NCBI GenBank assembly: GCA_902785935.1
Contig: CADAAN010000006.1
Location: 4,309 to 68,308, forward strand
Direction of reading: 5' to 3'
DNA length: 64,000 nt
DNA from: an uncultured Pseudomonadota bacterium
GTDB taxonomy: Bacteria; Pseudomonadota; Alphaproteobacteria; RF32; CAG-239
A program made the translations under genes and the position numbers. The notes under the pieces are model-generated. The model was not told where the DNA came from. It did no database searches and saw only the letters and a program-made list of their open reading frames with translations. Within the stretch, counting starts at the first letter, position 1. Each line of letters starts with the position of its first letter. Positions 1 to 46,353 of the stretch are shown in pieces.

Positions 1-1
1 A

Positions 2-160
2 GCAAAATATAAAGATGTGATTGCAAAATACGGTAATGTTGATGTATTCGTTTTGCCTAACTTTGAATGTCATTTCACAAAGCACAAAGGGGTTGAGTGT
101 CCATATAAAGACGATGACAAGGTTTGGGTTTTTGACGGCTACTCTTATTGCAATTGGTAA
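2..160 (+). CDS. C-terminal fragment of a CDS truncated by the window start (hypothetical protein)
   Basis: Open frame from the window edge to TAA at 158-160 (AKYKDVIAKYGNV...GYSYCNW*), followed by a hairpin plus T-run. Confidence 0.3.
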   Translation, partial: AKYKDVIAKYGNVDVFVLPNFECHFTKHKGVECPYKDDDKVWVFDGYSYCNW

Positions 161-182
161 TCTTTATTATTGGATAAGTAAA

Positions 183-208
183 GGGAGCTTTTTACGGCTC
201 CCTTATTT
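183..208 (+). terminator. Rho-independent terminator
   Basis: gggagc/gctccc stem followed by ttatttt. Confidence 0.45.
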
Positions 209-288
209 TATGTTTGTTTTCGCAATTTAATAATTGCCTTTTTATATAAATTCAATTAGACTTCGAATTGTAATTGATAGCATGAAAT

Positions 289-1476: not shown

Positions 1477-2155
1477 TAATTTCTGAAATACTTTGCTTAA
1501 CAATCGGATTTACATACTTTTTCTTCTGTCCGTTCATAAGAATTGTATTTTGTAACTCTTGATATAGGTTTTTGGAATTTATACCTAAAGTATTTGAAAT
1601 TTTTTCACTCCAGATATTAAGGGGCATTTCTCTGGTGAGGTGTAAATCAATATGTTCCCGTATAAAACGTGGATTTAAAAGCTTGTTTTTAATATGTTGT
1701 GTATAGAAAGTTATCCTCTTCTTACGATTTTCTTCGTCAAAATATTTTTTAAACTGCCGAGGAAGTTCTTGAACTTCTTCAGCATACTTTCCTTTGAATG
1801 ATAATAAAATATTCTTAAATTCAATTTTAGGATACGATTGAGATATTTGAGAAATCATCTCTATTTCATCAGTTCCGTTAATACAAAAAGCATATAGACT
1901 ATCTGAGATAATAAAATTTTCAACATCTTTCTTGCGAATTCCATAAGTTACTTCTTTATTGTACAAAAACAACTGATCAGGATGAAGTGATTGTTCATGA
2001 ACAATATATCTTTCCTCGTCATCTGATCGAATAGGCCGACTCGTTACTTGCGGAATAATAAAAATATTTGGATCTGACACACTTATTGCTTTTAAAAGTG
2101 TGCTCTTTCCGACACAGGACGTTCCCGTAATGGATATAAAGTACTTTTTATCCAT
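1442..2155 (-). CDS. P-loop kinase, guanylate-kinase-like
   Basis: Walker A ITGTSCVGKSTLLKAI followed by IPQVTSRPIRSDDEERYIV (GK-like TTRxxR region). Overlaps the NUDIX gene by 8 nt, consistent with an operon. Confidence 0.4.
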   Translation of the reverse strand: MDKKYFISITGTSCVGKSTLLKAISVSDPNIFIIPQVTSRPIRSDDEERYIVHEQSLHPDQLFLYNKEVTYGIRKKDVENFIISDSLYAFCINGTDEIEMISQISQSYPKIEFKNILLSFKGKYAEEVQELPRQFKKYFDEENRKKRITFYTQHIKNKLLNPRFIREHIDLHLTREMPLNIWSEKISNTLGINSKNLYQELQNTILMNGQKKKYVNPIVKQSISEIIIALYNNKKQI

Positions 2156-2576
2156 GGGCTTTTACACTAATTATCACAAAAGGAGTTGCATTGCATGACG
2201 TTAAGTCTTGTTTAAGAATCCATAATGCACCATTTGAATCTAAATCTGAAATATTTATATTCGGCTCTCCTTGTACTTGACAATCAAAAAGTATACCGGT
2301 ATGAATTAAACAGCCTGGCCTTCCATCATCTTCTGTAAAGTCCTCAAATCGTACAATTTCTTCTTTACGCGAGGTACAATCGACAAGTTTACAGCCTGTT
2401 TCTTCCATAATTTCTCGTCTTAATGTTTCAAGTTCCGTTTCTCCTTCTTCTGGAGATCCTCCCGGTAAATCATACATCCCAGTATAAGGCCCTCTTTTTT
2501 TTCTAATAAGTAATACCTTATTATTTTTTTCAATATACCCATATATTCCCTTATGTGTTCTAGTTATTTCTCTCAC
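2148..2576 (-). CDS. NUDIX hydrolase
   Basis: Nudix box GGSPEEGETELETLRREIMEETG (GX5EX7REUXEEXGU). Confidence 0.75.
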   Translation of the reverse strand: MREITRTHKGIYGYIEKNNKVLLIRKKRGPYTGMYDLPGGSPEEGETELETLRREIMEETGCKLVDCTSRKEEIVRFEDFTEDDGRPGCLIHTGILFDCQVQGEPNINISDLDSNGALWILKQDLTSCNATPFVIISVKAHG

Positions 2577-3546
2577 TATTTATCTCCTTTAAACGAAAAT
2601 TTACATTGCTGATTAGGTGATTAAGAGTCGTTATAAAAAATTTATGTAAAACAATTTCAGTAAATTTATGCATTTCATAACAATAATATTCTGTAGATAA
2701 AGCCATCTCAAATCCCTTATAACAAGCCAACACGTTTATTATATCATATTTTTTTTGGAAGTCATCTGTTTTATTTAATATTTGATAATGCTTTTTTAAT
2801 ATTTTTTTTTCTAACACTATGTCTGGTTGATCTGTATATTTTAAAAGCAGGTCAATTAAATCGTACAATTGGTAGTTATATCGAATAGAATCAAAATCCA
2901 AAAATTTATATTTATCTTTGCAAATCAAAATATTTTGAGGATTACAATCCCCATGAATGATGCCATAATTCCAACTATTTTTAACGATATAAGGCATTGT
3001 AACGGTTTCTAATAGCTTCAATTTATCATATATTATGGAATAAGATTTGTATCTGTTGTCTATAACAAGGCAGTTTTTAACATTAGACGTCCAGTAGTGC
3101 TGAATACGTTTTTGGCTATTTTGAATTTCTTTTTTTAGATTTAATATGCGTTTTCCCTGATAACCAGACATATGAAAATCTTGCATCAATTGTAAGTTTT
3201 TAATAAAATTTTCCGAAATCTGCCCTTGGGCTTTTTTATATAATATTACAGGTTTTGATGCAAACTGACTTATGGCGTCATTAAATTTGTTCAGATTCAA
3301 TTCAATACAGTAAAATTTTTTATATTGATTAAACAGCTTCAAAGATTTTTGTAAAAATTTTCTTGTTTTGGTTTCGTAAATTTTCATAATATACTGTTGA
3401 TTAATTTCCAACACAGTATTGTCCATTGCATTATTATAAATTTTTATCTCGCACGGTATAATATTATATTCTGATACCAAAAATTCAGATATATCGTTCA
3501 CTTTATAACTTGTAAAATTTCCATAATTATTACTGTTTAAAAACAT
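2560..3546 (-). CDS. Aminoglycoside/choline-kinase-like phosphotransferase (APH fold)
   Basis: Catalytic loop IIHGDCNPQNILI and downstream DFD motif. The start is uncertain: the ORF extends to 3657, and 3546 (MFLNSNN...) avoids a long overlap with the upstream GT gene. Confidence 0.5.
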   Translation of the reverse strand: MFLNSNNYGNFTSYKVNDISEFLVSEYNIIPCEIKIYNNAMDNTVLEINQQYIMKIYETKTRKFLQKSLKLFNQYKKFYCIELNLNKFNDAISQFASKPVILYKKAQGQISENFIKNLQLMQDFHMSGYQGKRILNLKKEIQNSQKRIQHYWTSNVKNCLVIDNRYKSYSIIYDKLKLLETVTMPYIVKNSWNYGIIHGDCNPQNILICKDKYKFLDFDSIRYNYQLYDLIDLLLKYTDQPDIVLEKKILKKHYQILNKTDDFQKKYDIINVLACYKGFEMALSTEYYCYEMHKFTEIVLHKFFITTLNHLISNVNFRLKEINSERNN

Positions 3547-4768
3547 AGGTGTTTTCCATTTGTTGTAAAATATCTGATAGTTTATACTTATCTTTAATAC
3601 CTTGTGCAATATGTACATTTGGTTCTGACAAACTTTTTTGTACAGCATAGACACCATTTTCTACGATTTCTGTGTCTGTATGACCATCGAATGGTATACC
3701 TAAATACTGTTCATTCATACACATTATCTCAGGACAGCCTCCACGAAAAAGATAAACGATATTTTTTCCGCTTAGACATGCTTCTATAAGTGCCCCTGGA
3801 AAGTTATCGTGCCTATATGTAAACAAAAAGGTATCGCACGCACTATATATAAATTTCAAATCCCCATAATTAAAATAACCGCATATATGGATATTGGAAC
3901 TATATTGTTTTGAAATCATCGCATTAAGTGCTTTTAATGAATATTTCTGGTTTAATGTCAATGAATTTCCATTTATTTCATAATGACCAAAAAAATAAAA
4001 ATGAACATTCTTATTTTTTGAAATAATTTTTTTTGCTATTTTAATAGCCAAATCAGTTCCTTTTCTGTATTCTAGGCTTCCAATAACGAATATATTTGTA
4101 TCTTTTTCATTTATTTTGTGATTTTTTATGTGTTGATTATAAAATGCGCAGGCCTTTTTTCTTGATATCAAAGAAGTATCTTCAAAATGATTGTTAATAA
4201 AGTTGGGTATAATGCATACAGGAATCGATGCTATTTCTTTTATAAGATTTCTGGTAAAATTATATACGTAATTAGTAGGTGCAGAAAGTATATCTGAATA
4301 TATAAGCTCTTTATGCTCTCTCTGAATTTGTAACTGTTCTTCTGCTGAAAAAGTTGGATGTAATTGTTTTGTTAATTCCAATATACTATGTAGTCTCGTT
4401 ATTTTTAAAACGTTAGTATTGTGTACATGACTGTATAGATTTGATAATATGCCCTCCCAATCCGGAGCTTCAATAATTAGTTTGTTGTGCGGGTTTGAAG
4501 TAACTAGTTTTACTATTTTTTCTGCTGCATGTTCAATTTTGAGAATTAGATTAGGTTTAGGTATGTAAAGTATACGGCAATTTCCTTCCCTAACCGAAAT
4601 AAAACGATTTGTTGGAGATTCAGTCAGCCATATCATATGCACATTTGGCCTGTTTTGTTGGAAAGCTTGATATAAAAGCCCTAAATATGTACCTATACCG
4701 CCTTTAACAAGAAGTCTGTGATCCTCAGTCGATACGATTAAATAAAATAAGCTAGATAAATTGTTCAT
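3530..4768 (-). CDS. Glycosyltransferase family 1 (GT4-like)
   Basis: N-terminal GGIGTY motif; C-terminal NFPGALIEACLSGKNIV typical of the GT1 EX7E region; GGAG ribosome binding site upstream. Confidence 0.55.
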   Translation of the reverse strand: MNNLSSLFYLIVSTEDHRLLVKGGIGTYLGLLYQAFQQNRPNVHMIWLTESPTNRFISVREGNCRILYIPKPNLILKIEHAAEKIVKLVTSNPHNKLIIEAPDWEGILSNLYSHVHNTNVLKITRLHSILELTKQLHPTFSAEEQLQIQREHKELIYSDILSAPTNYVYNFTRNLIKEIASIPVCIIPNFINNHFEDTSLISRKKACAFYNQHIKNHKINEKDTNIFVIGSLEYRKGTDLAIKIAKKIISKNKNVHFYFFGHYEINGNSLTLNQKYSLKALNAMISKQYSSNIHICGYFNYGDLKFIYSACDTFLFTYRHDNFPGALIEACLSGKNIVYLFRGGCPEIMCMNEQYLGIPFDGHTDTEIVENGVYAVQKSLSEPNVHIAQGIKDKYKLSDILQQMENTYVFKQ

Positions 4769-4880
4769 TTAATTCTCCAATCTTAATATGAAGATTAACT
4801 AATTCATATAAGAAAACAATTTTTTATTGACATTTATCCCGAAAATTGTATACGTTATTCTCCAAATAATGGAGATATTA

Positions 4881-6206
4881 ATGACTTTTTCATGTGGAAT
4901 TGACTTTGGAACAACAAATACTGCAGCAGCTCTATCGACAAGTAAAACCGAACCTACACTTATTCATTTAGAAGGTGATAGCGTAATAATCCCTAGTGCA
5001 CTATTTATCGGTATAGATAAAAAGATATATTTTGGCAAACAGGCAATGCAGTTGTATATGAATGGTGAAAACGGCCGTTGTATGCGTAGTTTGAAACGTG
5101 TGCTAGGTACAGATTTAATGATGTCTGGTACATATTTTAATAATAACAAAATTTCCTTTTCCGAACTTTTAAGTTGCTTTTTGAAAAACATAAAAAATAA
5201 AATTGATCTAGCGGCTGAAGCAAATGTTGACAGTGTTGTCTTAGGTAGACCTGTCCATTTTCAAGATAATAATCCGAACAGTGATATGCGTGCTGAAAAT
5301 GAACTGAGGCAAATAGCACAAAAAGCCGGCTTTAAAAATATAGAATTTCAATACGAACCGATTGCGGCCGCGTTTGCTCATGAATCAAAAATTACCGAAG
5401 AAAGTTTGGCTTGTGTTATTGATATTGGTGGTGGTACTTCCGATTTTTCAATTATTAAAATCGGACAACCACTTATGTTAAAAGTTGATAGAACAGATGA
5501 TATCCTTTCAAGCGTCGGTATTCGTATAGGAGGTAATGATTTTGATAAAGATTTGTCTTTGAAAGCATTCATGCCGGTATTTGGTTATCAAACACTACAA
5601 GGTGGACAAACACCTTACGATAAAGTCATGACTTTACCCACAATACCATTCAGAACAATGGCAGAATGGAGTTCTATCAACTCAATGTACACATATAAAG
5701 AACTTAATTTTGCAAAAAAAATGTTATTCAATGCTCAAGAAAAAGAAAAACTTCAGCGTTTTGTAGAATTAATTGAAAAGCAAAAAGGGTATTCCCTATT
5801 AAATACGGTTGAAAAAACAAAAATAAAATTAACTGAACAGTGCAAAATAAACGTACCATTGAATTTTATTTCTGATAAACCAGTTGTTCCTGTGTCAAGA
5901 CAAAATCTTAATGAATCTATAGAATTAGATGTCGCCCGTATTTTTAAGAAAGTAGATGAATGCTTTAGTCAAGCCGGCATCAAACCTGATGATATACAAT
6001 ATGTTATTTTGACTGGTGGTTCTACAGAAATCCCTTTAATTCAGAATATTGTTTCTCGTTATTTTCCGAATGCCGTTTTATCTCAAGACAACAAATTCTC
6101 TAGCGTAAGTATAGGTTTAACATACGACGGCATGCGAAGATTTTCAAAAAGAGAATCTTCTAAAGGATGTATGGTAGGTTCTCATACAGGATATTTAGGA
6201 CGATAG
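4881..6206 (+). CDS. Hsp70-family ATPase (non-canonical DnaK-like; HscC/YegD-like)
   Basis: GIDFGTTNTAAA phosphate-1 motif, DIGGGTSDFSII phosphate-2 motif, ILTGGSTEIPLIQ adenosine motif; GGAG ribosome binding site before ATG 4881. Divergent from the GT operon. Confidence 0.75.
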   Translation: MTFSCGIDFGTTNTAAALSTSKTEPTLIHLEGDSVIIPSALFIGIDKKIYFGKQAMQLYMNGENGRCMRSLKRVLGTDLMMSGTYFNNNKISFSELLSCFLKNIKNKIDLAAEANVDSVVLGRPVHFQDNNPNSDMRAENELRQIAQKAGFKNIEFQYEPIAAAFAHESKITEESLACVIDIGGGTSDFSIIKIGQPLMLKVDRTDDILSSVGIRIGGNDFDKDLSLKAFMPVFGYQTLQGGQTPYDKVMTLPTIPFRTMAEWSSINSMYTYKELNFAKKMLFNAQEKEKLQRFVELIEKQKGYSLLNTVEKTKIKLTEQCKINVPLNFISDKPVVPVSRQNLNESIELDVARIFKKVDECFSQAGIKPDDIQYVILTGGSTEIPLIQNIVSRYFPNAVLSQDNKFSSVSIGLTYDGMRRFSKRESSKGCMVGSHTGYLGR

Positions 6207-6213
6207 TGGTAGT

Positions 6214-7152
6214 TTATGCTTTATGTCTGTTGCCTGACACATAAGCCTGCAGGTCTTCCAAACGGTATTTAACCGTTCTGCCGATTTTAACAAACGGCAA
6301 CCGATCGGGATATTGCGTGCGCCAGCGTTCCAACGTGTTTGGTTTGAGCTTCAAATACTTGGCAGCTTCTTCTGTCGTTAACAGGTCAGACGGATGATCC
6401 GGAACATTTTCTTCTTCATCAAACAGCACATTTTTGCTTTGCTGTTTGAAAATCTTTTCTTCCAAACGTTCAATGGCGCGACTTTGTAACTTATAGCCCG
6501 TGCGCGTTAAAGCATCCCTTAAAATGCGATAACACATATCAATTCCCTTAAATCCGTCACATTCAAACTTAACATCTATATTGACTTTGTAACCGAAATA
6601 AACATCCGTGAACCAAAACTTGTTTTTAAAAACGGCATCTTGAAAATTAGTATCGCCATTAAAACAGTTGCCCAAAAATGAGACTTCCGTTTCAAAAACC
6701 GCTCTTGAAAAACTTATGCTGTGATCTTCATAAGTTCCCTGATTTTCCAATTCATCTCCACGAAAATAAAAATAGCCGTCTTTTGCAGGTTTCGTCTGAA
6801 TAAAGAAAAAGTCCAACTCTTTTTCGTAAATGATGTTGTTAAAGTTTGTGATGCCGTTAAAAACAGAACGTGTAAAACATGTATGTCCACAAAAGACGCT
6901 CTTTTCAAAGCTTGTATTACCCTTAAATTCGCATTGCATAAATTTCAAATTGACCTTAAAGATCGCTCGGCTTAAATCTAAATCATTAAATGTGCACTGA
7001 TAAAACTCAACTTCCGGCACACCACATTCAATAATGGCTTTGATTTCCTCGTTATCTACTTCGCTAAAATCAAGCGTATCAAAAAATGCCATTCCTTTTG
7101 CTCTGAAATAATCTAAATCAAAATGCTTTTCTTTGTTATAAGTCTTTGCCAC
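6214..7152 (-). CDS. Pentapeptide-repeat protein fused to a C-terminal excisionase-family (MerR/AlpA-like) HTH DNA-binding domain
   Basis: Repeated A(D/N)(L/F)xx pentapeptide-like units (CFTRSVFNGITNFNN, GNCFNGDTNFQDAVFKNKFWFTDVYF); C-terminal LLTTEEAAKYLKLKPNTLERWRTQYPDRLPFVKIGRTVKYRLEDLQAYV matches the excisionase/Xis HTH. Confidence 0.6.
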   Translation of the reverse strand: MAKTYNKEKHFDLDYFRAKGMAFFDTLDFSEVDNEEIKAIIECGVPEVEFYQCTFNDLDLSRAIFKVNLKFMQCEFKGNTSFEKSVFCGHTCFTRSVFNGITNFNNIIYEKELDFFFIQTKPAKDGYFYFRGDELENQGTYEDHSISFSRAVFETEVSFLGNCFNGDTNFQDAVFKNKFWFTDVYFGYKVNIDVKFECDGFKGIDMCYRILRDALTRTGYKLQSRAIERLEEKIFKQQSKNVLFDEEENVPDHPSDLLTTEEAAKYLKLKPNTLERWRTQYPDRLPFVKIGRTVKYRLEDLQAYVSGNRHKA

Positions 7153-7164
7153 GGTTCTGCTCCT

Positions 7165-7542
7165 TTACAAATCTAACACCTGTTTTAAGAGGTTAATTTG
7201 ATTTACAAATTTTTCTGGATTACTTTGTTGCAATCTTATCAAATTTTCTATTTTCCATCTAACACCGGAGAGTCTACCTACATTTGGTATAGTTGTGTTT
7301 TTCCATGCTTCATCCAATGAAAAGAAATCTATCAAAAATTGTTTATCATCGGGTGTTAAAGCTGATTTTACTTTGGAAACAAGTGTGTCAAAAGTGTTAT
7401 TGCAATCTTCCATGGTGAAGCTTTCATCACTCATTCCCTGAAACTCTTGTTCAAACTTTGTAGAAATATTTTGTTTATTTGGGGCTAATAATTCATGTGG
7501 AGGGCGATTATGTTGCAACAAACTTACATATTGTTCAATCAT
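7165..7542 (-). CDS. Hypothetical protein (island gene)
   Basis: ORF of 125 aa, start/stop-coupled to the upstream gene; no recognisable motif. Confidence 0.35.
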   Translation of the reverse strand: MIEQYVSLLQHNRPPHELLAPNKQNISTKFEQEFQGMSDESFTMEDCNNTFDTLVSKVKSALTPDDKQFLIDFFSLDEAWKNTTIPNVGRLSGVRWKIENLIRLQQSNPEKFVNQINLLKQVLDL

Positions 7543-8303
7543 TAGATTTCTCCAAAGTCTTCTATAACGATATTATATTTCTTATCTAATTTTCCGTTTT
7601 TGGTGATGATGCGCTTACCGGAACCTATGTTTATTTTATCTACTTGGATTTCAGTAAACCACGAATGATTTATTTTTTCTGCCATATAAAGGAATAAACG
7701 CTTTACTTTCACGGAAGAACAGTTTTCCAATAATTCTTGCATGAGTTTCGGACGAAGATTCACCAAAAGTTCAAGTGTTTGAAATGTTTCTTTCAAAGAT
7801 ATTATATTTGGAGCTAAATACAGCATTTCTAATATAGCTCGTTCCGGTGTTGAAACTTGCACAGAAAAGACATCGTGGACATCAGTTATTCCTAGCTCAG
7901 CAGGTAGAAAATCAGATTTTACCCACTGATACCTCTTGTTTTTAAAATATTCTACAAACCATTTTGGTTGCAAAACCTTATTACTGCTGAAAAGAAACCA
8001 TTGAAAGCCCTCTAATTGCACAAAATGGTTAAATCCGTGAAGCATAAGTGCACTTTTAGCTCCAAAATGAACATCCGAACCTAATTGCTTTTGCAAGGCA
8101 TAAACTGCTCCTCTTATGGTTGGTGTATCACCATATCTTGAAAACGCTCCGGTTCCTATTGATTGCAACCATTCGTTATTTTTATAGTACTGTTGCAAAT
8201 CGTTAGATATACCTAAACTCTTTAGCCATACCGAAGTAACAACAGCTCCTTGAGGTATCTGTTGCAACATTTGGTTTAAATATGTTTTTCTTTTCGTAGT
8301 CAT
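7542..8303 (-). CDS. Hypothetical protein, possibly AbiEi-like (COG5340) winged-helix regulator
   Basis: N-terminal QQIPQGAVVTSVWLKSLGIS...GTGAFSRYG resembles the AbiEi antitoxin N-terminal domain; weak. Confidence 0.3.
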   Translation of the reverse strand: MTTKRKTYLNQMLQQIPQGAVVTSVWLKSLGISNDLQQYYKNNEWLQSIGTGAFSRYGDTPTIRGAVYALQKQLGSDVHFGAKSALMLHGFNHFVQLEGFQWFLFSSNKVLQPKWFVEYFKNKRYQWVKSDFLPAELGITDVHDVFSVQVSTPERAILEMLYLAPNIISLKETFQTLELLVNLRPKLMQELLENCSSVKVKRLFLYMAEKINHSWFTEIQVDKINIGSGKRIITKNGKLDKKYNIVIEDFGEI

Positions 8304-8394
8304 ACTAATATCTTATTATTTAAAATAAACCTTGTCAAGTTTAATTTTATTACTAAAATCGTAGTTACACTACTAATACAACAATCAAAATAAA

Positions 8395-9552
8395 CTATTT
8401 TTTGCTGATTTGTATCATTTTGTTAATGGTATCGTTCAATTTATCGCGTAGGTGTTCAACACCCAAATTGACGTAAACTTGCGTGCTTTGCAGACTTTTG
8501 TGGGTTAAGGCTCGTTTTACCATAAAAGCATCAGCCCCGTTTGCTATCAGATATGTACCTAAGGTATGTCTAAGGTCGTGAATTCGGAAATTTGTTATAT
8601 TTGCCCTGCGCAATATAATTGCCCACGATTTTTTAATATCTACCACATGACCTGATTTTGAAGTCGGAGAATAGAATATCCAATCGCTTTGAGCCGATGA
8701 TTGTCTTTGATATAAAACCTTCATTGCTTCTTCAGCCAGAGCAATCGTTACATTCTCATCTGTTTTTGTTTGCGGAATTTTCCAAATCTTAGCAGACATA
8801 TCTATGTCTTCCCATTTCATTTCAAAAACATTTGATTTGCGAGCTCCGGTAAAGATAAGCATTAAAACAATGTCACGCACCAAATCATCTTCATAAGCGT
8901 AAACCGTTTCCATAAAGCGCTTGAGTTCATTATGCTCTAAATAACGCACACGGGCTTCAACTTTGTTTAATTTGACTGATAATGCAGGGTTCCGACCGTC
9001 AAAACGTTCTTCTTTGATTGCATAGTTGAACATTGTACTGATAAGCTTAATAAAATGATTTGCTATGTAATTGCCGTTTTTGACGGATATTTGCCGATGT
9101 AATTCGCGTAGCATATCGCCGGTTATTTCTTTTAGGTGTTTTCTGCCAAGTTTACACAGCTTTGAATTCCATATTCTTTTGTAATCTAATATTGTTTTTT
9201 GCGCAAGATATCTTTCTCTGTCTGTAATAAAATCATCGTATAACTGTTGCAATAGAGTATCTTGTTTATACTGACGCTTTGTAACGTTAGGGTTTTCTCC
9301 ATCATTCATTTTCTTGCGATTTGTAACGGCGGCAATTCTGGCTTCTTCTACAGTCATAGTCGGAGATTCGCCGAGTTTAACGCGAGTATCATGCCCGAGA
9401 ACTCTTTGTCGGATATAGAAACTTTTTGCCCCGTTCGGAGTTATTTGCAGCGACAGTTTAGGCTCTACCGTATCATAATAATAGGTTCTTTTCTTCGGTA
9501 TCGGTAAGTTTTTGATATTTGTGTTGGTAAACTTAAAATGATTAGCGTTCAT
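8395..9552 (-). CDS. int: Tyrosine recombinase / phage-type integrase
   Basis: C-terminal catalytic residues in the R...HDLRHTLGTYL...Y arrangement; N-terminal arm-binding region; adjacent to a tRNA-like att fragment. Confidence 0.9.
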   Translation of the reverse strand: MNANHFKFTNTNIKNLPIPKKRTYYYDTVEPKLSLQITPNGAKSFYIRQRVLGHDTRVKLGESPTMTVEEARIAAVTNRKKMNDGENPNVTKRQYKQDTLLQQLYDDFITDRERYLAQKTILDYKRIWNSKLCKLGRKHLKEITGDMLRELHRQISVKNGNYIANHFIKLISTMFNYAIKEERFDGRNPALSVKLNKVEARVRYLEHNELKRFMETVYAYEDDLVRDIVLMLIFTGARKSNVFEMKWEDIDMSAKIWKIPQTKTDENVTIALAEEAMKVLYQRQSSAQSDWIFYSPTSKSGHVVDIKKSWAIILRRANITNFRIHDLRHTLGTYLIANGADAFMVKRALTHKSLQSTQVYVNLGVEHLRDKLNDTINKMIQISKK

Positions 9553-9746
9553 AAGCCCCTCTGTCGTATAGTAATTGTTTTCCGGTGCCGCACTGGTGCC
9601 GCATATTTAAACAAATTTTATCCAATTTAATAAAACTTGTCAAGTAAAATTTTTAAAAATAATATAATAAAAACAAACACATAAATGCATTTTCATAAGA
9701 GATATGATTTTCTAAATAAAACATAATATCAATTACTCTTAATCAG

Positions 9747-9997: not shown

Positions 9998-12169
9998 TTA
10001 TGCAGCTTTGGAAAGCTCTGATAAAACATCCTTTTTCAAGGTGACGTTATCAACCTTTCCGGTTGCGGACATCGGGATTTTATCCCGATAAATTATCTGG
10101 CGCGGCAGATAAAGCTCAGGATAGCCGTTTTGCTTGATAAATTCACGCAACATTTCGGTATTAAGCGTTTTTTCGTTGGTTACAACAACAATTTGCTCAC
10201 CTTTCTGTTCATGCGGTACGGCTACGACACCACAGCAAAAATCATCTCTACCGGAAAAAGCGCTGTTAATCATATTTTCAACCGCTTTTAATGAAATCAT
10301 CTCACCGCCGACCTTGGCAAAACGTTTGATACGGTCTTTGATCGTGATAAATCCGATTTCATCAATCTCAACAACATCACCTGTGTGATACCAACCGTTG
10401 TGCGGCGGTACCAAAACCCCCGGATTGTCGGCAAAAATATAACCCTTCATCACATTCGGCCCCTTGACCACAAGCTCACCGCCGCGTTCAATACCGTCTA
10501 CTTTTTCAAGACGACATTCCATTCCCGGACAGAGTTTGCCGATGGTGCCGAATTTATTAAATACCATGTTGTTGCCTGCAACAGCCGGAGAACATTCCGT
10601 CGTGCCATAGGCTTCCATCAGACGTGTGCCCAATCGCTCATTTAATAAATTGCGTGTATCAAGCTTGACGCCTTCTGCTCCCGCATAAACAAGCCTTAAT
10701 GACCCGAAATCAAGCGGATGCGAAATTTTGGCATAGCTTCTGAAGAATGTATCCGTACCAATCATCACTGTTGCACTTAATTCATAAAGCAAATCCGAAA
10801 TGACGCGAAAATGGAGCGGAGAGGGGTACAAAAAGACTTTTGCACCTTGATAAAGAGCATAAAGTGTGCCTAATACAAGCCCGAAACTGTGGAAAATCGG
10901 CATTGAATTTAAGACAATATCACGCTTGTTTAAGGTTTCAAAAGTCGCAATTTGCCATACGTTTGAAATCACGTTTTGATTTGACAATACAACGGCTTTC
11001 GGTGCACCTTCCGAGCCTGAGGTAAACAAAATAACGGCTGCATCGTCAGGGGTTGCTTTATATGGCACATATTTGACTTTGTATTGCAATAAGGCCAAAA
11101 TTTTTGCAAAAATCGAAACAGACCGTCCGACTTCTTCTAAAAAAATCACCTCAAATCCGGCATTTGTAATCGCTTCAGCCAGCGGTTCTAATCCCGCTTT
11201 TTTGATAAACATTTTTGATGTAATCACTTTTTTTGCCTGAACGGTTTTAAGCCCGCTTATTACATTCTGTGCACCGGCAGAAAAGTTAATCATGACAGGC
11301 ACTTGTCCATAGGCATTTAAGCCGAAAAATGTGCATATAGCCGCAACGGAATTCGGAAGCATCACGGCAACCGGCTCTTTCTTGTCCGAAATGAGAGAAA
11401 AATGACGCCCCAAAACATACGATGCAAGCATAATATCCTTAAAAGTTTTGGGTTTGCGCGTAATATCTTCCAAAACGTATGGACGACGCAGGCCAAAGCA
11501 TCTCTTTGCATGAATTTTTGAGGCTTTAATCAATTGTGTAAAGACCGTCATTTTTTTATCATAAATCGATTCAAACATTTGCTCACGCATAATCATGTAA
11601 ATTTCATTTGAAATGTGATTACGTTGATGCCTGAGCTCTGCCTTAAGCTTTAAGGGACGGGGTGCGTCAACAACAATTTTGACATGCGGAAAATAACGAT
11701 GCGGTAATTTTCCGCCTGTTTTTGAAAAATGGCAATACTGCAAGCCGTTAATCCAAATCGGTATGACGGGCGAATCCGTTTTATCGGCAAGAAGCCCCGC
11801 TGATTCATAAATCTTCATAATATTACCGTTGGTTGTCATACGTCCTTCCGGAAAAATGACGCAAAGGCGGCCGGAATTAACCGTTGAAATCAAATGCTTT
11901 AAGTCCGGTACGTCAATATTGTCATGTTTGACAACATCAGCCGTTTTTAAAAACAAACGTACCCAATAGTTGCGATAGAGTTGCCCGTGCAATGCAAAAA
12001 CCGGATTGCCGGGTAAAAACGCAAAAAGCACAATCGGATCAACCCATGATACGTGGTTTGAAATATATACGCCCTTTTTGGGAAGTTTATCAACGTCAAA
12101 ACGCATTTCAAAACGAACCTTAAAGGTCTTAAAAAAACATCTTAAAAGAAAGCGAACAATATCGCGCAT
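9998..12169 (-). CDS. aas: Bifunctional 2-acylglycerophosphoethanolamine acyltransferase / acyl-ACP synthetase
   Basis: N-terminal PlsC-type acyltransferase HxxxxD motif (NHVSWVDP); C-terminal AMP-binding motifs FTSGSEGAPKAVVLS and YGTTE; 723 aa. Confidence 0.85.
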   Translation of the reverse strand: MRDIVRFLLRCFFKTFKVRFEMRFDVDKLPKKGVYISNHVSWVDPIVLFAFLPGNPVFALHGQLYRNYWVRLFLKTADVVKHDNIDVPDLKHLISTVNSGRLCVIFPEGRMTTNGNIMKIYESAGLLADKTDSPVIPIWINGLQYCHFSKTGGKLPHRYFPHVKIVVDAPRPLKLKAELRHQRNHISNEIYMIMREQMFESIYDKKMTVFTQLIKASKIHAKRCFGLRRPYVLEDITRKPKTFKDIMLASYVLGRHFSLISDKKEPVAVMLPNSVAAICTFFGLNAYGQVPVMINFSAGAQNVISGLKTVQAKKVITSKMFIKKAGLEPLAEAITNAGFEVIFLEEVGRSVSIFAKILALLQYKVKYVPYKATPDDAAVILFTSGSEGAPKAVVLSNQNVISNVWQIATFETLNKRDIVLNSMPIFHSFGLVLGTLYALYQGAKVFLYPSPLHFRVISDLLYELSATVMIGTDTFFRSYAKISHPLDFGSLRLVYAGAEGVKLDTRNLLNERLGTRLMEAYGTTECSPAVAGNNMVFNKFGTIGKLCPGMECRLEKVDGIERGGELVVKGPNVMKGYIFADNPGVLVPPHNGWYHTGDVVEIDEIGFITIKDRIKRFAKVGGEMISLKAVENMINSAFSGRDDFCCGVVAVPHEQKGEQIVVVTNEKTLNTEMLREFIKQNGYPELYLPRQIIYRDKIPMSATGKVDNVTLKKDVLSELSKAA

Positions 12170-15957: not shown

Positions 15958-16038
15958 TTTCTTTTGATAAATAAACCCTCAAATTTTGAATGTCAAAGAA
16001 AAATCATCGTTTTTCAGATGTATTTTTAATTTTTTTGT

Positions 16039-16067
16039 TTGACTTTTATTTTAAAGTATGCCATAAT
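16039..16067 (+). promoter_or_regulatory. Sigma70-like promoter for leader A4 (TTGACT, 17-nt spacer, CATAAT)
   Basis: Consensus -35/-10 with 17-nt spacing immediately 5' of the conserved leader start gtaacc. Confidence 0.5.
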
Positions 16068-16074
16068 CAAAAGC

Positions 16075-16265
16075 GTAACCAAAATGGTTATGGTGTTTAG
16101 ATAACACATTCGAGTTAAGGCTCCTTTGAAAGAGGAGTTGTTGATATAAGGCAATTTTTGCTCGAATAAGACAAACTGTAACTCGACAGTTATCTAGCTC
16201 CTCCATTTTGAGATTTTTCAAGATGGATTTTTTTTTCGATGGTTTAAAAAATAAGGAGAAAAAAT
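16075..16265 (+). ncRNA. Conserved structured 5' leader, family A (copy A4), ending in an intrinsic terminator; candidate riboswitch/attenuator
   Basis: Shares with three other loci: the aacca-aaa-tggtt hairpin, a ctcct-loop-gaggag hairpin, gatataagg, cgaataag and agctcctcc motifs, then a terminator (ccattttga/tcaagatgg plus T9) before the ribosome binding site. Confidence 0.6.
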
Positions 16266-17324
16266 ATGAAGAAATATGTTTGGGTTTTTGGACTTATTTT
16301 AAGTTATAATGCACAAGCTTATGATTATAATGATTGTTTTGGTGCAAGCGGATGTCAGCCCTGTCCGAATAGTACGGACGGCAAATGTTTTTATGCTGTT
16401 GAAGGCAGCAAAATGACAATTTATGGCCCGACATCAACCGAACAAAATGCAGATGGCAGCTTAAAAGAAACAACATCGATTCCGCGTTATGCCTTTACCA
16501 ACAGCGATAATGCCAGCAATTTGCCGGAAAATATCACTTCTCTTGAAATAACAGGTAATATCACAACCGTTGAAGGTTATGCTTTTTGCTCTGCCCCTCT
16601 GACAAATGTACAATTTCCTGAGACACTTGAAACAATATCGGAATTGGCTTTTTGGAACAATAATTTATCACAAATCAATTTTCCTAATTCGCTTAAAAAT
16701 ATAGAAGAAGGTGCTTTTAATTGGAATCCATTTTCAGAAATTAATTTACCCGACGGATTAATGACGCTGGAGGGGTTAACAGGTGTTCCCCTGGGGCATG
16801 TTGTTATTCCGGATTCGATTGCAGAGGTTAAAGATGCGATTTTTTCTTCAAACTATCGTTTGCAATCATTGGTTGTCGGCGCAGACACAATGCTTGGCAA
16901 TATTTTTACCTACACAACAGGGGCTGTTAGTGTGCAATTTGATAAATTCAAGATGTTTTGCGCAGAAAATAACGGCTCATGCACAACAGCTTTGCAAAGT
17001 GCCGGTGCAACACAAGAACAAATTGCGCAAATACTGATAAGTTATACAAAAGATGACGCAACAGGCGTTTATCAAACAAGTGACGGAAAATATTATGCCG
17101 ATGTCAATTTGATGGCAAGACAAATGGCTTGCGAAAATAAGCAAAGCTGTGAAATTGCCAGTGCTGATATTCGGGCAGGTCGTCCTTTTGATATGAAAGG
17201 AAAATCTTACGCATCTGTCGATGATTTCATTCAAGGAAAATATATTCCAAAGCGTATCTATACCATCGATGAAGCCAATCATGTCGCGGGCAAGACAAAC
17301 ACTTTTACGATTCGGTATCGATAG
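16266..17324 (+). CDS. Secreted BspA-type leucine-rich-repeat protein, paralog 1, with the family-specific conserved C-terminal domain
   Basis: Signal peptide MKKYVWVFGLILSYNAQA; repeated LxxIxxxAFxxC/N units; C-terminus PKRIYTIDEANHVAGKTNTFTIRYR shared by 5 paralogs. Confidence 0.7.
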   Translation: MKKYVWVFGLILSYNAQAYDYNDCFGASGCQPCPNSTDGKCFYAVEGSKMTIYGPTSTEQNADGSLKETTSIPRYAFTNSDNASNLPENITSLEITGNITTVEGYAFCSAPLTNVQFPETLETISELAFWNNNLSQINFPNSLKNIEEGAFNWNPFSEINLPDGLMTLEGLTGVPLGHVVIPDSIAEVKDAIFSSNYRLQSLVVGADTMLGNIFTYTTGAVSVQFDKFKMFCAENNGSCTTALQSAGATQEQIAQILISYTKDDATGVYQTSDGKYYADVNLMARQMACENKQSCEIASADIRAGRPFDMKGKSYASVDDFIQGKYIPKRIYTIDEANHVAGKTNTFTIRYR

Positions 17325-18404: not shown

Positions 18405-20579
18405 TTGAAAAACTTTGTGAGATTTTGTCTGCGTACGTTCTTTTATATCTTCAAGGTCAGATGCAACATCAAGTTTGACTTGAAGAAATTGCCTAAAAAA
18501 GGTGTTTATGTTTCAAACCACGTGTCTTATTTAGACCCGATTTTGCTCTTTGCCTTTTTGCCGGGCAATCCGATTTTTGCCTTAAACGGGCATTTGTATC
18601 GTCGAAGATTTATCCGTTTTTTGATGAAAACGGCTGATATTGTGGAATTTAATCCGATTGAACCGTCTGATTTGAAGGATTTAATCAATAAGGTGAACGA
18701 TAATCGTCTTGTGGTGATTTTTGCCGAAGGACGTATCACCGAAAGCGGCGGCTTGATGAAGATTTATGAGGCGCCGGGGCTTTTGGCGGACAAAACCAAT
18801 GCACCGATTATCCCGATTTGGATTGAAGGTCCGCAATATGGTTATTTTTCAAAGACAAAAGATAAATTGCCCCACAGACCGCTTCCTAAAATGCTGATTA
18901 CGGTCGGCAATCCGAAACCCTTAAAGCTTAAAGATGAGCTTCGTCGTCAGCGTGACCACTTAAGCAATGAAGTGTATCATATTTTGACGGATATGCAGTT
19001 TTCAATTACCTACAATCCGAATATTTCGATTTTTGCACAGCTTGTCAAAACATCTAAAGTATATTCAAAAACGGGCTTTTTCTTTAAACGTCCGATGGTG
19101 ATTGAAGATATTAACCGCAAACCGATGAGCTATAAGGATTTGTTGCTCCGTGTTTATTTACTCGGTAAGTTTTTTAAGAAAAAAGCCGCGCATATGGAGC
19201 ATGTCGGCTTGATGTTGCCGAATACAATCGCGGCTGCGGCAACGTTTTTGGGGTTATCCGCGTATGAGCGAATCCCTGTCATGCTGAACTTTTCAGTAGG
19301 TGCCAAAAACCTGATTTCAATGTGCAAAACAGCGGAAGTAAAGCTTGTGATTACGTCAATCGCCTTTATTAAAACGGCAAAAATGGAGCCGGTGATTGAA
19401 GTCTTAAAATCAAATGGTATCGAGGTCTTTTATCTTGAAAGTTTGGCTAAAAAATTAGGGATTATCAGCAAATTGGGTGCCATGCTTCGTTATAAAACAA
19501 AGCGTATCCCGCACCGTCACGGCGGCAACAGAAAAGCGGCTATTTTATTTACGTCAGGCTCTGAAGGTGCTCCGAAGGCCGTTGTTTTAAGCCATGCCAA
19601 CATTATCTCTAACATCAAACAAGTTACAACGGTCGAAACAATCAATATGAAGGATTTGGTCTTTAATGCCATGCCGATGTTCCACAGCTTCGGACTGACA
19701 ATCGGTACATTGTTCCCGCTTTTAGAGGGGGGCAGGGTGTTTTTGTATCCTTCGCCGTTGCATTATCGCGTGATTGCTGAATTGATTTATGAGCTGGGTG
19801 CGACAATTTTGTTCGGGACAGATACCTTTTTCAGAGGTTATGGACGAATCGCGCATCCGTACGATTTTTATAACGTTCGGTTTATGTATGCCGGTGCTGA
19901 GGCTGTTAAACTTGATACGCGTAATTTGTTTATGGAGCGGATGGGCGTGCGCATTATGGAAGCATACGGTGTGACGGAATGTGCGCCGTTTGTGGCAGCC
20001 AACAATCACGTTTACAGTCGATTCGGCTCAATCGGCAAAATTGTGCCGGGGATTGAGTATAAGTTAGAGCCTGTGCCCGGGATTGAAAAAGGCGGAGAGC
20101 TTGTCGTTAAAGGTCCGAATATTATGATGGGCTATATCATGCCTGATAAACCCGGGGTTTTGGTACCCTTAAAAGACGGCTGGTATCATACGGGTGATGT
20201 GGTTGAAATTGATGAAATCGGCTATGTCTTTATCAAAGACCGCATCAAACGCTTTGCTAAAATCGGCGGTGAGATGGTGTCCTTAAATGCCGTACAGGAT
20301 ATGGTTATCAAGGCTTATGAATGGATGGGGCCTGACTTTAGTTATGGTATTGTTTCCGTACCGCATGAAAGCAAGGGTGAGCAAATCGTCTTGGTCACGA
20401 ACAACAATCAGGTCAAACAGGAAGTTTTGCATGACTATATCAAAAACAATGGTATGTCTGAGCTGTTTTTGCCTCGAACCATCCTGTATCATGAAAAAAT
20501 TCCGGCCTTTTTGACAGGTAAAACCGATAACGTTACCTTGAAAAAAGAAGTGATGGAAGAATTGGGCTTAAATAAATAA
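18405..20579 (+). CDS. aas: Bifunctional acyltransferase / acyl-ACP synthetase, second paralog
   Basis: Same domain architecture as 9998..12169 (NHVSYLDP; FTSGSEGAPKAVVLS), about 55% identical; TTG start with GGAG ribosome binding site. Confidence 0.85.
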   Translation: MKNFVRFCLRTFFYIFKVRCNIKFDLKKLPKKGVYVSNHVSYLDPILLFAFLPGNPIFALNGHLYRRRFIRFLMKTADIVEFNPIEPSDLKDLINKVNDNRLVVIFAEGRITESGGLMKIYEAPGLLADKTNAPIIPIWIEGPQYGYFSKTKDKLPHRPLPKMLITVGNPKPLKLKDELRRQRDHLSNEVYHILTDMQFSITYNPNISIFAQLVKTSKVYSKTGFFFKRPMVIEDINRKPMSYKDLLLRVYLLGKFFKKKAAHMEHVGLMLPNTIAAAATFLGLSAYERIPVMLNFSVGAKNLISMCKTAEVKLVITSIAFIKTAKMEPVIEVLKSNGIEVFYLESLAKKLGIISKLGAMLRYKTKRIPHRHGGNRKAAILFTSGSEGAPKAVVLSHANIISNIKQVTTVETINMKDLVFNAMPMFHSFGLTIGTLFPLLEGGRVFLYPSPLHYRVIAELIYELGATILFGTDTFFRGYGRIAHPYDFYNVRFMYAGAEAVKLDTRNLFMERMGVRIMEAYGVTECAPFVAANNHVYSRFGSIGKIVPGIEYKLEPVPGIEKGGELVVKGPNIMMGYIMPDKPGVLVPLKDGWYHTGDVVEIDEIGYVFIKDRIKRFAKIGGEMVSLNAVQDMVIKAYEWMGPDFSYGIVSVPHESKGEQIVLVTNNNQVKQEVLHDYIKNNGMSELFLPRTILYHEKIPAFLTGKTDNVTLKKEVMEELGLNK

Positions 20580-20593: not shown

Positions 20594-21493
20594 TTATCTG
20601 TACCTGATTTTGACCGAATTGACTTTGCCTGCGATGGCATTTGCTTCATCGATGGTGTAGATACGCTTTGGGATATAATCTCCTTTTTGCATCGCGGAAA
20701 TTGAGGCATAAGTTTTCTCACCGATACGATATTTCCCGTCAGGTGTCTTAGAATAATGAATAATTTTCGGGTTTTTACCCGTTTGAAGCGCTATTCTTGA
20801 ACATACCTCTTCGGAAGCCGCACAATATAGTTTTTGAAGGTTTGTGTTTGTAAAAGCTTCATCATCAATATTTGTCACACTATTCGGAATAACAAGTGTT
20901 TCAAGTGTTGAAATATCAGCAAGAGACGTCCAACCGATTGAGGTTACACCTTCAGGGATTTCCAGATTTTTAAGTTTTGTTCCGACAAAAGCTCTATCAG
21001 GAATTTCTGTTTGAGCCTGCCCAAGCATCAAATAATCTATTTTTGTTGCCGCAAAACTCCAAGCACCGACATATTGAAGATTTAGAGGTGTATTAATTTC
21101 TTTTAATAAATCTGCACCCTGAAATGCAGCACCGCCAATTTGTTCAATAGAATCCGGCAAATCAATACTGCTGATTTTTGTATAAGCAAGTGTATAACTA
21201 CCGATATTGGTTAAAGAATCCGGCAATGAGACACTTCGAATAGTTTCAAGTTTTTCAACCCATGGTGTTCCCGGCCTTTGGTTTTTAGAATCCCATTCGT
21301 AATTTGTCATTTTTCCGACAGGTGCATTTTCATCTTTGGCTTCAATTGAAAAAAGACCTGTCTGCTCATTTAGTCTGGCAAGGCAATTAGCGCCGCAATC
21401 CCAACAATTGATGTTTAAATCATCACCGCAAGTATTGACTGCTTTAGCTTGAGAGCTCATTGTCAGTAAAAAAAATAAAATCCATTTTCTCAT
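20594..21493 (-). CDS. Secreted BspA-type LRR protein, paralog 2
   Basis: Signal peptide MRKWILFFLLTMSSQAKA; LRR units; C-terminus PKRIYTIDEANAIAGKVNSVKIRYR. Confidence 0.7.
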   Translation of the reverse strand: MRKWILFFLLTMSSQAKAVNTCGDDLNINCWDCGANCLARLNEQTGLFSIEAKDENAPVGKMTNYEWDSKNQRPGTPWVEKLETIRSVSLPDSLTNIGSYTLAYTKISSIDLPDSIEQIGGAAFQGADLLKEINTPLNLQYVGAWSFAATKIDYLMLGQAQTEIPDRAFVGTKLKNLEIPEGVTSIGWTSLADISTLETLVIPNSVTNIDDEAFTNTNLQKLYCAASEEVCSRIALQTGKNPKIIHYSKTPDGKYRIGEKTYASISAMQKGDYIPKRIYTIDEANAIAGKVNSVKIRYR

Positions 21494-21676
21494 ATTTTTT
21501 CTCCATTATGCAAAATAAAAAACCGTTTAAGATAAACCAAAAACGGAGGAGCTAAACGAACTGCACTAAATCAGTTAAGCTTATTCGAGGTATTAACCCT
21601 TATATCACTTACTCCTCTCTAAAGGAGTATATTTTTAGTGCAAGTGTCGTTTAAACACCGCAACCATTTTGGTTAC
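21494..21676 (-). ncRNA. Conserved structured 5' leader, family A (copy A1), with intrinsic terminator (ccgttt/aaacgg plus T-run) before the ribosome binding site
   Basis: Promoter TTGACA-17-TTAAAT at about 21680-21712 (minus strand); conserved motifs as in A2-A4. Confidence 0.6.
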
Positions 21677-21846
21677 GCTTTCATTTAAGCATATATCAAA
21701 ATACTTGTCAAGATGTTTTTAGCCTCTGTCACAATCGGCAACAAAATGTGCATTGATAATTGGGGCTAACGCGGCAATATCAGTTGATATATCTGAAAAT
21801 CATTTTATAATCAGCGTATGTTTTTGAACTTTGGAGAACTTTAAAT

Positions 21847-27838: not shown

Positions 27839-28090
27839 TGTTGATAAGAAAAGTACTAAAAAATAAGGAAAAAATGCATTTTTATACAAAAAATAAACAA
27901 AAAAATAAAATTTTTTGCATTTTTTGCTTGTTTTTCGATTCAAAATGTGATACATTGACAACATAAAAGTACCATAAGTTATGTTTATAAGAATTAATAA
28001 CTATTGTGAACGGGTTGAAGATTTTTTTGAAGTCTTGCCTGCGTTGTACTTTTGAAATTTGAAAAATTAATCATCAAATATTTTACAATT

Positions 28091-41673: not shown

Positions 41674-41676
41674 ATC

Positions 41677-41950
41677 TTTTCTCCAAAATTTATTAAACGA
41701 AAAAACCACTCTAAAATGAGCGGCGGGGAGTAAAAGAATCATGTAATGGAAAATGACTTCCGTAACCTTTAGGTCAAAACCTTGAACATACGCCACGGAC
41801 TCCCCAACCAAAATATCGGGGATAAGCATTGTTTTAAAATAAAAAAACAACACTAAAACAGCGTTATCTCTCACTGTCCATTACAAAAGCTCTTTTAAAG
41901 CCCCGCACCCTTTTCGGGTACTTGATAGAAAAAGCCAAAACCTTCCTATC
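41677..41950 (-). ncRNA. Conserved structured 5' leader, family B (copy B2), with terminator ccgctc/gagtgg plus T6
   Basis: Promoter TTGACA-16-TAATAAT at about 41958-41987; conserved blocks as in B1/B3. Confidence 0.6.
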
Positions 41951-42024
41951 TGATTTATATTATTACATATCAAAAACATCTTGTCAAGAAATTTTAAAAT
42001 ATTTTAATACGTGATTTGGCTGTG

Positions 42025-42170: not shown

Positions 42171-42207
42171 GCAAGCGGCCGCACAAGTAATTGGCCATTA
42201 TAAGCTT

Positions 42208-46177: not shown

Positions 46178-46353
46178 TTTTTTATTTTCACATAAAAAAC
46201 GTAGCTTGTCAAATAAATTTTGTAAAAAATATCTTTTTTTGCTTGAAAAATAAAACTTTAATGATAAATTGTGCTTGAAATTTAAATTAACCCCCGTGCG
46301 GGGAATCCGCACAGCTCTTTTCTTAAGAGTTTACTTTTTTATAAGGATACTAA

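Follow-up and report, generated by a model that had tools for sequence, protein, structure and literature searches.

Why do five putatively exported proteins, which have less than a third of their residues in common, end in almost the same peptide? The question is raised by a stretch of 64,000 nucleotides from an uncultured alphaproteobacterium (contig CADAAN010000006.1; the whole stretch is referred to as the window in the following), which carries five genes for leucine-rich repeat (LRR) proteins of the BspA type. An earlier note on this DNA had described them as a paralogous family of five members with a nearly invariant C-terminal domain of about 50 residues. The genes are indeed paralogous, and the shared tail is found in all five products, but the invariant unit comprises only 23 residues, the stretch ahead of it differs in two of the genes, and the family is far larger than five. 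While BspA-type LRR proteins are already known, the C-terminal tag described here is new with respect to the searched databases and literature, as are its restriction to a rumen clade, its expansion, its occurrence on other passengers and the two leader RNAs which the tagged genes share with type IVb pilin genes. With moderate confidence, we read the tag as a recognition signal that acts after Sec export, has a single envelope partner common to all tagged proteins, and belongs to a surface regulon controlled by the leaders. We favor this reading because the peptide is strictly terminal and poorly structured, shows stronger conservation than the domain that bears it, passes from one passenger to another and is adapted to each genome.

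A conserved and modular peptide at the end of LRR proteins

Gene 1 (16266–17324, forward strand) encodes a putative exported protein of 352 amino acids (aa), whose repeats match the Pfam family LRR_5 with E = 6e-21; its 23-aa tag is encoded at 17253–17321, and its tail reads RIYTIDEANHVAGKTNTFTIRYR. The other four genes lie on the reverse strand and likewise encode putative exported LRR_5 proteins, namely gene 2 (20594–21493; 299 aa; E = 1.7e-29; tag at 20597–20665), gene 3 (29407–30540; 377 aa; E = 2.4e-50; tag at 29410–29478), gene 4 downstream of nusG (40816–41673; 285 aa; E = 7.5e-14; tag at 40819–40887), and gene 5 between typA and gap (45087–45986; 299 aa; E = 8.6e-11; tag at 45090–45158). 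For gene 4, a longer open reading frame (ORF) with a GTG start reaches 41874 and overlaps the leader RNA discussed below, which ends at 41675; the ATG at 41673 is therefore the likely start. LRR_5 (PF13306, BspA type) is matched by all five proteins with 42.3–170.1 bits (E = 8.6e-11 to 2.4e-50), the gathering score being 27.7 bits, and each N-terminus resembles a signal peptide in that a hydrophobic core comes after a basic residue. These three points, i.e. the ORFs, the repeat type and the signal-peptide-like N-termini, had been claimed before and are confirmed. In each protein, cysteine pairs flank the repeat region on both sides. The product of gene 2 is identical to a protein (P0027) of an 89-kb metagenome scaffold, the sample label of which starts with STEW19.

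Overall, the five proteins are 27–32% identical, whereas their last 23 positions include 16 invariant residues. In a six-frame scan of the window, the motif RIYT[IV]DEANx[VI]AGKxNx[FV]xIRYR occurs five times, and each time immediately 5' of a stop codon. This unit (RIYT...RYR), which usually has a K or R just ahead of it, is connected to the repeats in different ways: genes 1, 2 and 4 feature a hairpin-helix module ('YxxDGKYxxGxKxYAS' / 'GKxYxSxxDxxxGxY'), gene 3 has this module replaced by the stretch 'DGSTAIYEDGKIIGYEGK' ('DGSxxIYxDGKxxGxxGK'), and in gene 5 the tag is joined via a linker rich in proline and serine.

The repeats themselves are of a well-known kind. They have the same repeat type and solenoid fold as BspA-type LRR proteins such as Tannerella BspA, Treponema LrrA/TpLRR, pneumococcal PcpA and those of gut Bacteroides and Firmicutes (PDB entries 4h09, 4fs7, 4gt6, 6mlx and 4cp6); the first four of these entries are also the top Foldseek matches (E = 1.8e-7 to 8e-5) of an AlphaFold2 model of the gene 2 product, which has a mean predicted local distance difference test (pLDDT) score of 86.6. 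The known BspA-type proteins are exported by host-associated bacteria, and the present family may serve as surface adhesins. In the two AlphaFold2 models that were computed, the tag consists of one helix (DEANxxA) followed by 11–12 residues of coil, with no strand assigned by DSSP. The pLDDT score drops to 66–79 in this coil stretch, while it exceeds 90 in the LRR body, and the modeled tag therefore does not look like a part of the LRR fold.

To what extent does the family reach beyond the window? An exhaustive profile search with the C-terminus, covering 1.84 billion cluster-representative proteins, yielded 577 representatives at E ≤ 1e-3 and 257 at E ≤ 1e-10. The match reaches the last residue in 150 of the 150 proteins listed from these 577, most of which are 200–500 aa long. 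A word-indexed search with the tag profile had given only short fragments; it took the exhaustive search and a full-length query to reveal the family. In a scan of 185,579 species, each represented by one genome, the core peptide RIYTIDEA was found at 59 loci in just four metagenome-assembled genomes (MAGs), with 45 loci in RUG11221, nine in RGIG5118, three in UBA3773 and two in RGIG10106; these counts are lower bounds, as variant cores such as RIYTVEEA are left out. A scan of the JGI metagenomes returned 68 loci from a handful of projects. The family, whose possible presence elsewhere had been raised in the earlier note, is taxonomically narrow and heavily expanded, with five genes in 64 kb and about 45 in one fragmented MAG, in genomes of about 1 Mb.

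In the family as a whole, the tag has the consensus R-I-Y-T-I-D/E-E-A-N-x-V-A-G-x-x-N-x-V/F-x-I-K/R-Y-R/K, and it is far more conserved than the repeats it follows, the proteins being otherwise about 30% identical. The penultimate residue is tyrosine in all 201 full-length members, and the last one is arginine in 162 and lysine in 39 of them. A signal-peptide-like N-terminus is found in 190 of the 201, as called by a heuristic (a basic N-terminal region and a hydrophobic core) rather than by SignalP, and at least two cysteines are located near the start of the mature protein in 186. Four columns in an alignment of 150 relatives hold cysteine almost without exception.

The tag is not confined to LRR proteins. 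LRR_5 is matched by every one of the 150 family members tested. Yet the tag also forms the end of three unrelated passengers that have signal peptides but no LRRs, namely L051, L061 together with its relative P0276, and P0278, an occurrence which the earlier note had proposed to check; a homology query with such a non-LRR tail protein gave four matches only. Together with at least three kinds of linkers that join it to its passengers, among them a Pro/Ser-rich one, this makes the tag a modular element. Two further ORFs are probably decayed or rearranged members of the family: a tetratricopeptide repeat (TPR)/SNAP-like ORF (L039:2197-3108) continues in frame into a remnant of the tail (...NYIKKRIYTIDEANRVAGPINRISITYR), and a 31-aa ORF (L037:2961-3053) is made of the tail alone.

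These properties bear on a rival explanation, according to which the tag has no role in sorting, but is an intrinsic structural element, such as a C-terminal cap or a homo-oligomerization motif that acts, for example, by strand pairing between molecules. The regular pattern of the tag, reminiscent of strand-helix-strand, and its pLDDT scores, which are unlike those of a fully disordered tail, would be in line with this idea, and the N-terminus of ribosomal protein L1 happens to contain a similar 'YTIDEA' strand-to-helix motif, so that it may be an ordinary folding motif. Yet the tag is retained on passengers without LRRs and behind Pro/Ser-rich linkers, neither model contains a strand according to DSSP, and the tag is more conserved than the very repeats it would cap. 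A cap would also have no need for the very last residue in every member; the oligomerization variant is not affected by these points. On balance, we consider a purely structural or oligomerization role unlikely.

The conservation of the tag acts on the peptide and not on the DNA. Among 44 tails, the identities at codon positions 1, 2 and 3 are 0.83, 0.86 and 0.42 within the tag, as compared to 0.39, 0.42 and 0.36 in the 24 codons 5' of it; in the 60 nt 3' of the stop codon, identity is 0.28, i.e. the similarity stops with the stop codon. Where two tags share a residue, they encode it with different codons in 54.5% of the pairs. At the ten variable positions of the tag, there is a dependence on the genome, as the identity amounts to 0.62 within genomes and to 0.37 between genomes, while third-position identity is equal in both cases (0.43 and 0.41). 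The window thus has the variant AGK[TV]N[TS][FV]xIRYR, RUG11221 mostly AGxKNRVSIKYR, RGIG5118 SK[KP]TGNTF[KR]LRYK, and UBA3773 the longer xxNNKNTFSIRYR. Such genome-specific variants are consistent with co-evolution with one partner per genome.

A case of tag replacement is provided by gene 2 and its orthologue in RUG11221 (L012, contig 118), whose DNA is 89–94% identical along the gene, but only 55% identical over the last 42 nt (window 20594–20635, L012 945–986); blastn homology ends there, with none downstream, and the orthologue bears the tag variant of its own genome. A recombination breakpoint inside the tag-coding stretch has thus swapped one tag variant for another, and this stretch can double as a crossover site. 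One might take this loss of homology exactly within the tag, and the arrangement of a variable core between conserved flanks, as signs that the conserved 3' end and the 5' leader form a block of DNA homology, which is kept uniform by gene conversion and whose function is the shuffling of LRR cassettes, similar to antigenic variation. We regard this as very improbable. Third positions lie near background (0.42), residues shared by two tags are encoded differently in more than half of the cases, and comparisons within and between genomes give equal third-position identity; DNA homogenization therefore cannot explain the conservation, and we rejected gene conversion as its cause on the basis of these codon-position statistics. 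Recombination at the tag looks like a consequence of the conservation rather than its cause.

Comparison with known sorting signals and anchors

The tail might be a known sorting signal, for which the earlier note had named examples. No such signal was found with Pfam, NCBIfam or PDB, be it the C-terminal domain (CTD) of the type IX secretion system (T9SS), an autotransporter domain or a sortase-type tag. In Pfam and NCBIfam scans, the five proteins matched LRR families only, and their C-terminus had no match at E ≤ 1. A comparison of the tag profile with PDB sequences gave chance-level matches only (the N-terminus of ribosomal protein L1, E ≥ 0.25), no fold in the PDB matched the tag, and a literature search returned nothing relevant on the tag motif, on BspA in rumen Alphaproteobacteria or on a penultimate-tyrosine motif.

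In its distribution, the tag is nevertheless comparable to T9SS CTDs, LPXTG, PEP-CTERM and GlyGly-CTERM, which are likewise modular C-terminal elements on many diverse Sec-exported proteins of one genome. The anchors of known BspA-type proteins are T9SS CTDs, choline-binding repeats, lipid or LPXTG, whereas the window family has none of these and ends in the 23-residue tag. Specifically, a T9SS CTD is a beta-sandwich of 70–100 residues, while the last 40 residues of the window proteins are modeled as helix and coil and match none of the respective profiles (Por_Secre_tail, TIGR04183, type B). Moreover, T9SS hosts belong to the Bacteroidota/FCB group, whereas the window encodes GapR and a CcrM-type methylase (N6_N4_Mtase and RAMA domains), and the related MAGs are titled Alphaproteobacteria. 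Autotransporters end in a barrel of at least 250 residues (PF03797), but the window proteins, with their 285–377 aa, consist mostly of LRRs and have no match to a barrel profile. In contrast to the sortase-type tags (LPXTG, PEP-CTERM and GlyGly-CTERM), finally, the tag matches no NCBIfam model and has no hydrophobic transmembrane stretch, its longest hydrophobic run being 2–3 residues.

Type I and type IV secretion systems use uncleaved C-terminal signals as well, and those of alphaproteobacterial type IV systems are arginine-rich. The R/K-Y-R/K end of the tag might therefore be taken for a signal for secretion from the cytoplasm in one step. However, substrates of these systems have no Sec signal peptide, while the heuristic used here recognizes one in 190 of 201 tagged members, the conserved cysteine pairs suggest folding in an oxidizing compartment, and neither RTX/GG repeats nor type IV effector domains appeared in the profile scans. 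Among the explanations discussed here, we regard this one as the least probable, and think it extremely so.

As regards anchoring, two candidates were dismissed. Attachment as lipoproteins was rejected, because only one of the 201 full-length members has a lipobox-like motif, and covalent Lpp-like attachment via a C-terminal lysine was set aside, because 162 of them end in arginine. The tag might also be a non-covalent anchor, whose basic amphipathic end binds a non-protein component of the envelope, such as lipopolysaccharide (LPS), peptidoglycan or an anionic lipid. Its last nine residues, in which typically three to four K/R alternate with V/I/Y, would suit such a function, and the host is a diderm with genes for LPS transport; we nonetheless rate it as quite unlikely.

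Leader RNAs shared with pilin genes

The five tail genes have more in common than their 3' ends. Upstream of each of them, there is a promoter-like box of the TTGACA type and a conserved leader, with a hairpin and a T-run located just 5' of the ribosome-binding site (RBS). The leaders come in two types. Leader A precedes gene 1 (16008–16264, forward strand; nhmmer E = 4.4e-65), where the TTGACA promoter-like box is followed by a structured RNA of about 140 nt, the terminator hairpin and the T-run. On the reverse strand, it precedes gene 2 (21485–21754) and gene 5 (45990–46244), both found as matches to the leader profile and included in the covariation alignment, as well as a type IV pilin-like gene (52864–53093; nhmmer E = 1.2e-30). 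Leader B, a larger relative of leader A, is located on the reverse strand ahead of gene 3 (30542–30870; nhmmer E = 2.4e-92), where it extends over about 260 nt and features two T-runs, one internal and one terminal, ahead of gene 4 (41675–42002; again a profile match included in the covariation alignment), and ahead of a pair of type IVb pilin genes (61239–61554; nhmmer E = 6.1e-39).

Leaders A and B are real structured RNAs. RNAalifold finds compensatory changes in 22 of the 39 predicted pairs of leader A and in 37 of the 57 predicted pairs of leader B, and both are conserved in at least four MAG species. In Rfam 15, nothing but two tRNAs was found in the window at the gathering score, and under permissive thresholds the best leader matches scored 17–22 bits as compared to thresholds of 54–60. 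The leaders follow the same order as terminator-containing riboswitch or attenuator leaders, i.e. promoter, covarying multi-helix RNA, hairpin with T-run, RBS and gene; those, however, control metabolic genes, whereas leaders A and B precede surface proteins and pilins and have no match in Rfam.

Profiles built from the window copies alone were searched in 505 kb, comprising the window and the related loci. This search detected 83 leader copies, of which 71 lie directly upstream of complete tail genes, three upstream of LRR-like genes that run off their contig, and three upstream of type IV pilin-like genes; outside the window, these counts are biased towards tail genes, since it was by means of the tag that the related loci were retrieved. 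Conversely, a leader was detected for 61 of the 79 complete tail genes with enough upstream DNA, and most of the 18 misses are due to wrong start calls or belong to the divergent UBA3773 type. In the window, which was not chosen by a tag search, seven leaders precede the five tail genes and two pilin loci. The proposal that the leaders define a regulon of surface adhesins therefore holds insofar as they precede all five genes, but requires an amendment, as the regulon is not purely one of LRR proteins and includes pilin genes.

The pilin-like gene behind leader A (52253–52843, reverse strand; 196 aa) has no Pfam match, and its assignment is based on its signal motif only, a class III signal peptide (MKINEIG/RSMVEM..., with the slash between positions −1 and +1). 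The two genes behind leader B form a tandem pair on the reverse strand (59995–61230), consisting of 60649–61230 (193 aa) and 59995–60609 (204 aa). The pair matches the type IVb pilin families PilS_N (52.3 bits, E = 7.8e-14) and Bundlin (52.3 bits, E = 1e-13), both above the cut-off. In all three genes, the class III signal peptide has the prepilin motif G/RSMVEM, Gly being at −1 and Glu at +5; another example is MKNNENG/RSMVEMLGVLAI.... Shared cis elements thus couple the tagged proteins to pilus subunits, and at that level, the regulon is real.

Two envelope proteins are encoded beside the pilin pair on the reverse strand: a 607-aa protein with an Lnb_N domain and DUF7840/7842/7843 (61614–63437), and a DUF3015 protein (63478–63993). 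Between nusG and the leader B of gene 4, a 24-nt sequence (CTCATTCTAAGCTTTTATTTACGT) is repeated exactly and in direct orientation at 42026–42049 and 42098–42121 (reverse strand), and a GC-rich sequence at about 42171–42182 resembles, by eye, one arm of a terminator hairpin for nusG.

Genomic setting and a possible partner of the tag

Judged by what its DNA encodes, the host is a diderm alphaproteobacterium. The window has a G+C content of 38.8% and encodes MlaE/MlaD/MlaF-like, LptC/A-like and LptB-like proteins, IleRS, the CcrM-type methylase and GapR, a Ppx/GppA-family protein, phosphoglycerate kinase, trigger factor and an AmiC-like amidase; NusG, TypA, an RlmE-like methyltransferase and GAPDH were recognized by reading translations. 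As described before, the LRR genes are scattered as single insertions among such housekeeping genes (mla, lptC/lptB, ileS, the CcrM-type methylase and Ppx/GppA genes, nusG, typA, rlmE-like, gap and pgk). The nearest genomes are MAGs whose titles give the rumen as their origin; UBA3773, which belongs to them, figures in the list of small (<1.5 Mb) uncultured Proteobacteria from the rumen by Stewart et al. (PMC6785717).

Some other features of the window deserve mention. Its first part (1–9600), which is low in G+C (28–37%), is probably an integrated mobile element; it encodes a tyrosine integrase (8395–9552), an AbiEi-type regulator (7542–8303), a helix-turn-helix/pentapeptide protein, a glycosyltransferase, and ATP-grasp and kinase-like genes. 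Two paralogues of 723 and 724 aa (9998–12169, reverse strand, and 18405–20579, forward strand) consist of fused acyltransferase and AMP-binding (Aas-like) domains, and one of them is convergent with gene 2. A 378-aa ORF (28052–29188, forward strand) with a signal-peptide-like start, a C-terminus resembling that of outer membrane proteins (OMPs; ...SWSFGMFR) and no Pfam match lies in a 1-kb island of 52% G+C, compared to about 39% around it, which may be foreign DNA; a long antisense ORF (28187–28918) reflects the unusual composition of this island.

How, then, could the tag work? If it is a recognition signal, the proteins, composed of a cleavable-looking signal peptide, a cysteine-containing cap, variable BspA-type repeats, a second cysteine pair, a linker or module and the tag, would first be exported by the Sec pathway. 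In the periplasm, the free C-terminal end of the tag, i.e. a short helix followed by an amphipathic, strand-like stretch with the invariant penultimate tyrosine, would be bound by one shared envelope partner, which would sort the members of the family or retain them at the surface of the cell; the binding specificity would come from the variable LRR part. Transcription of each gene would be gated by its leader with the intrinsic terminator, and by virtue of their common leaders, the tagged proteins and type IVb pili would be produced together. Export by Sec, the binding of the tag by a partner, the placement at the surface and the control by attenuation are inferred, whereas the family and its anatomy, the modular nature of the tag, the selection on its peptide sequence, its genome-specific variants, the covariation of the leaders and the pilin link are seen in the data.

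One group of possible partners is suggested by the strand-like character of the tag. The β-signal of OMPs, which is read by the β-barrel assembly machinery (BAM), and the C-terminal motif of chaperone-usher subunits, such as ...ATFKVQYQ in FimA, are C-terminal strands that are recognized by machines of the envelope. The tag has alternating hydrophobic residues and a penultimate tyrosine (201/201) in common with them, and the N-[ST]-F-x-I-x-Y-x pattern of the window tags together with this tyrosine recalls substrates of BAM or of chaperone-usher chaperones, either of which may be considered as an alternative partner by analogy. In contrast to these substrates, however, tagged proteins have no β-barrel or immunoglobulin-like pilin domain ahead of the motif, and their last residue is R or K rather than an aromatic one.

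A type IVb pilus is an attractive candidate for the partner because the pilin genes are co-regulated with the tag genes. A precedent for such a relationship is found in TcpF of Vibrio cholerae and CofJ of enterotoxigenic Escherichia coli (ETEC), where a protein exported by Sec is recognized through a short, poorly ordered segment at its N-terminus, to which the minor pilin of the pilus tip binds, and is then taken through the secretin; this export signal can be transferred and works with its own pilus only (PMC10120004, PMC6048534). The likeness to the present family consists in a short terminal tag on Sec-type proteins, in the leaders shared with type IVb pilin genes, and in a tag that varies by genome. 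Yet TcpF and CofJ have N-terminal signals (PMC10120004), there is one substrate per system, and its gene lies in the pilus operon, whereas the window tag, modeled as helix and coil with pLDDT scores of 66–79, is C-terminal, has dozens of substrates, and is encoded by scattered genes, which are linked to pilin genes solely by their common leaders. We therefore see an analogy and not membership in the same system. By this analogy, a type IVb pilus or its tip pilin may collect the tagged LRR proteins in the periplasm and display them outside, with the set being switched by the riboswitch-like leader RNA, a scenario which we put forward as speculative and, in this specific form, rather improbable.

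Several points weigh against the broader reading of the tag as a recognition signal. No gene for pilus assembly, a secretin, an usher or a chaperone was found among the window ORFs scanned, and no partner was identified. AlphaFold2 models the tag with a confidence that is moderate and not low, which is compatible with a folded role. Genome-specific tag variants could also result from lineage-specific expansion or from gene conversion, given that one breakpoint was seen within the tag-coding stretch. Lastly, the heuristic nature of the signal-peptide calls and the bias of the leader counts outside the window, both described above, belong on the same side.

What does this mean for the bacteria that carry the tag? 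Conserved C-terminal tags have repeatedly led to machines of secretion or anchoring, as in the cases of LPXTG and sortase, of the T9SS CTD, and of PEP-CTERM and exosortase. The tag described here is short, non-hydrophobic and has no database model, and it marks what is apparently the largest gene family of abundant, uncultured rumen Alphaproteobacteria with small genomes; it may also serve as a simple marker for the set of exported surface proteins in this lineage. Leaders A and B are well-supported candidates for new structured RNAs ahead of surface-protein and pilin genes, for which, to our knowledge, few riboswitch-like leaders have been described. Together, the tag and the leaders suggest a new mode of addressing and regulating surface proteins. 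The link to the pilins makes pilus display via a terminal peptide a directly testable model, and if it were true, a rumen bacterium with a genome of about 1 Mb would have a library of exchangeable adhesin heads for one common stalk. Whichever the partner of the tag may be, naming it would show how these reduced rumen bacteria attach to whatever they live on.

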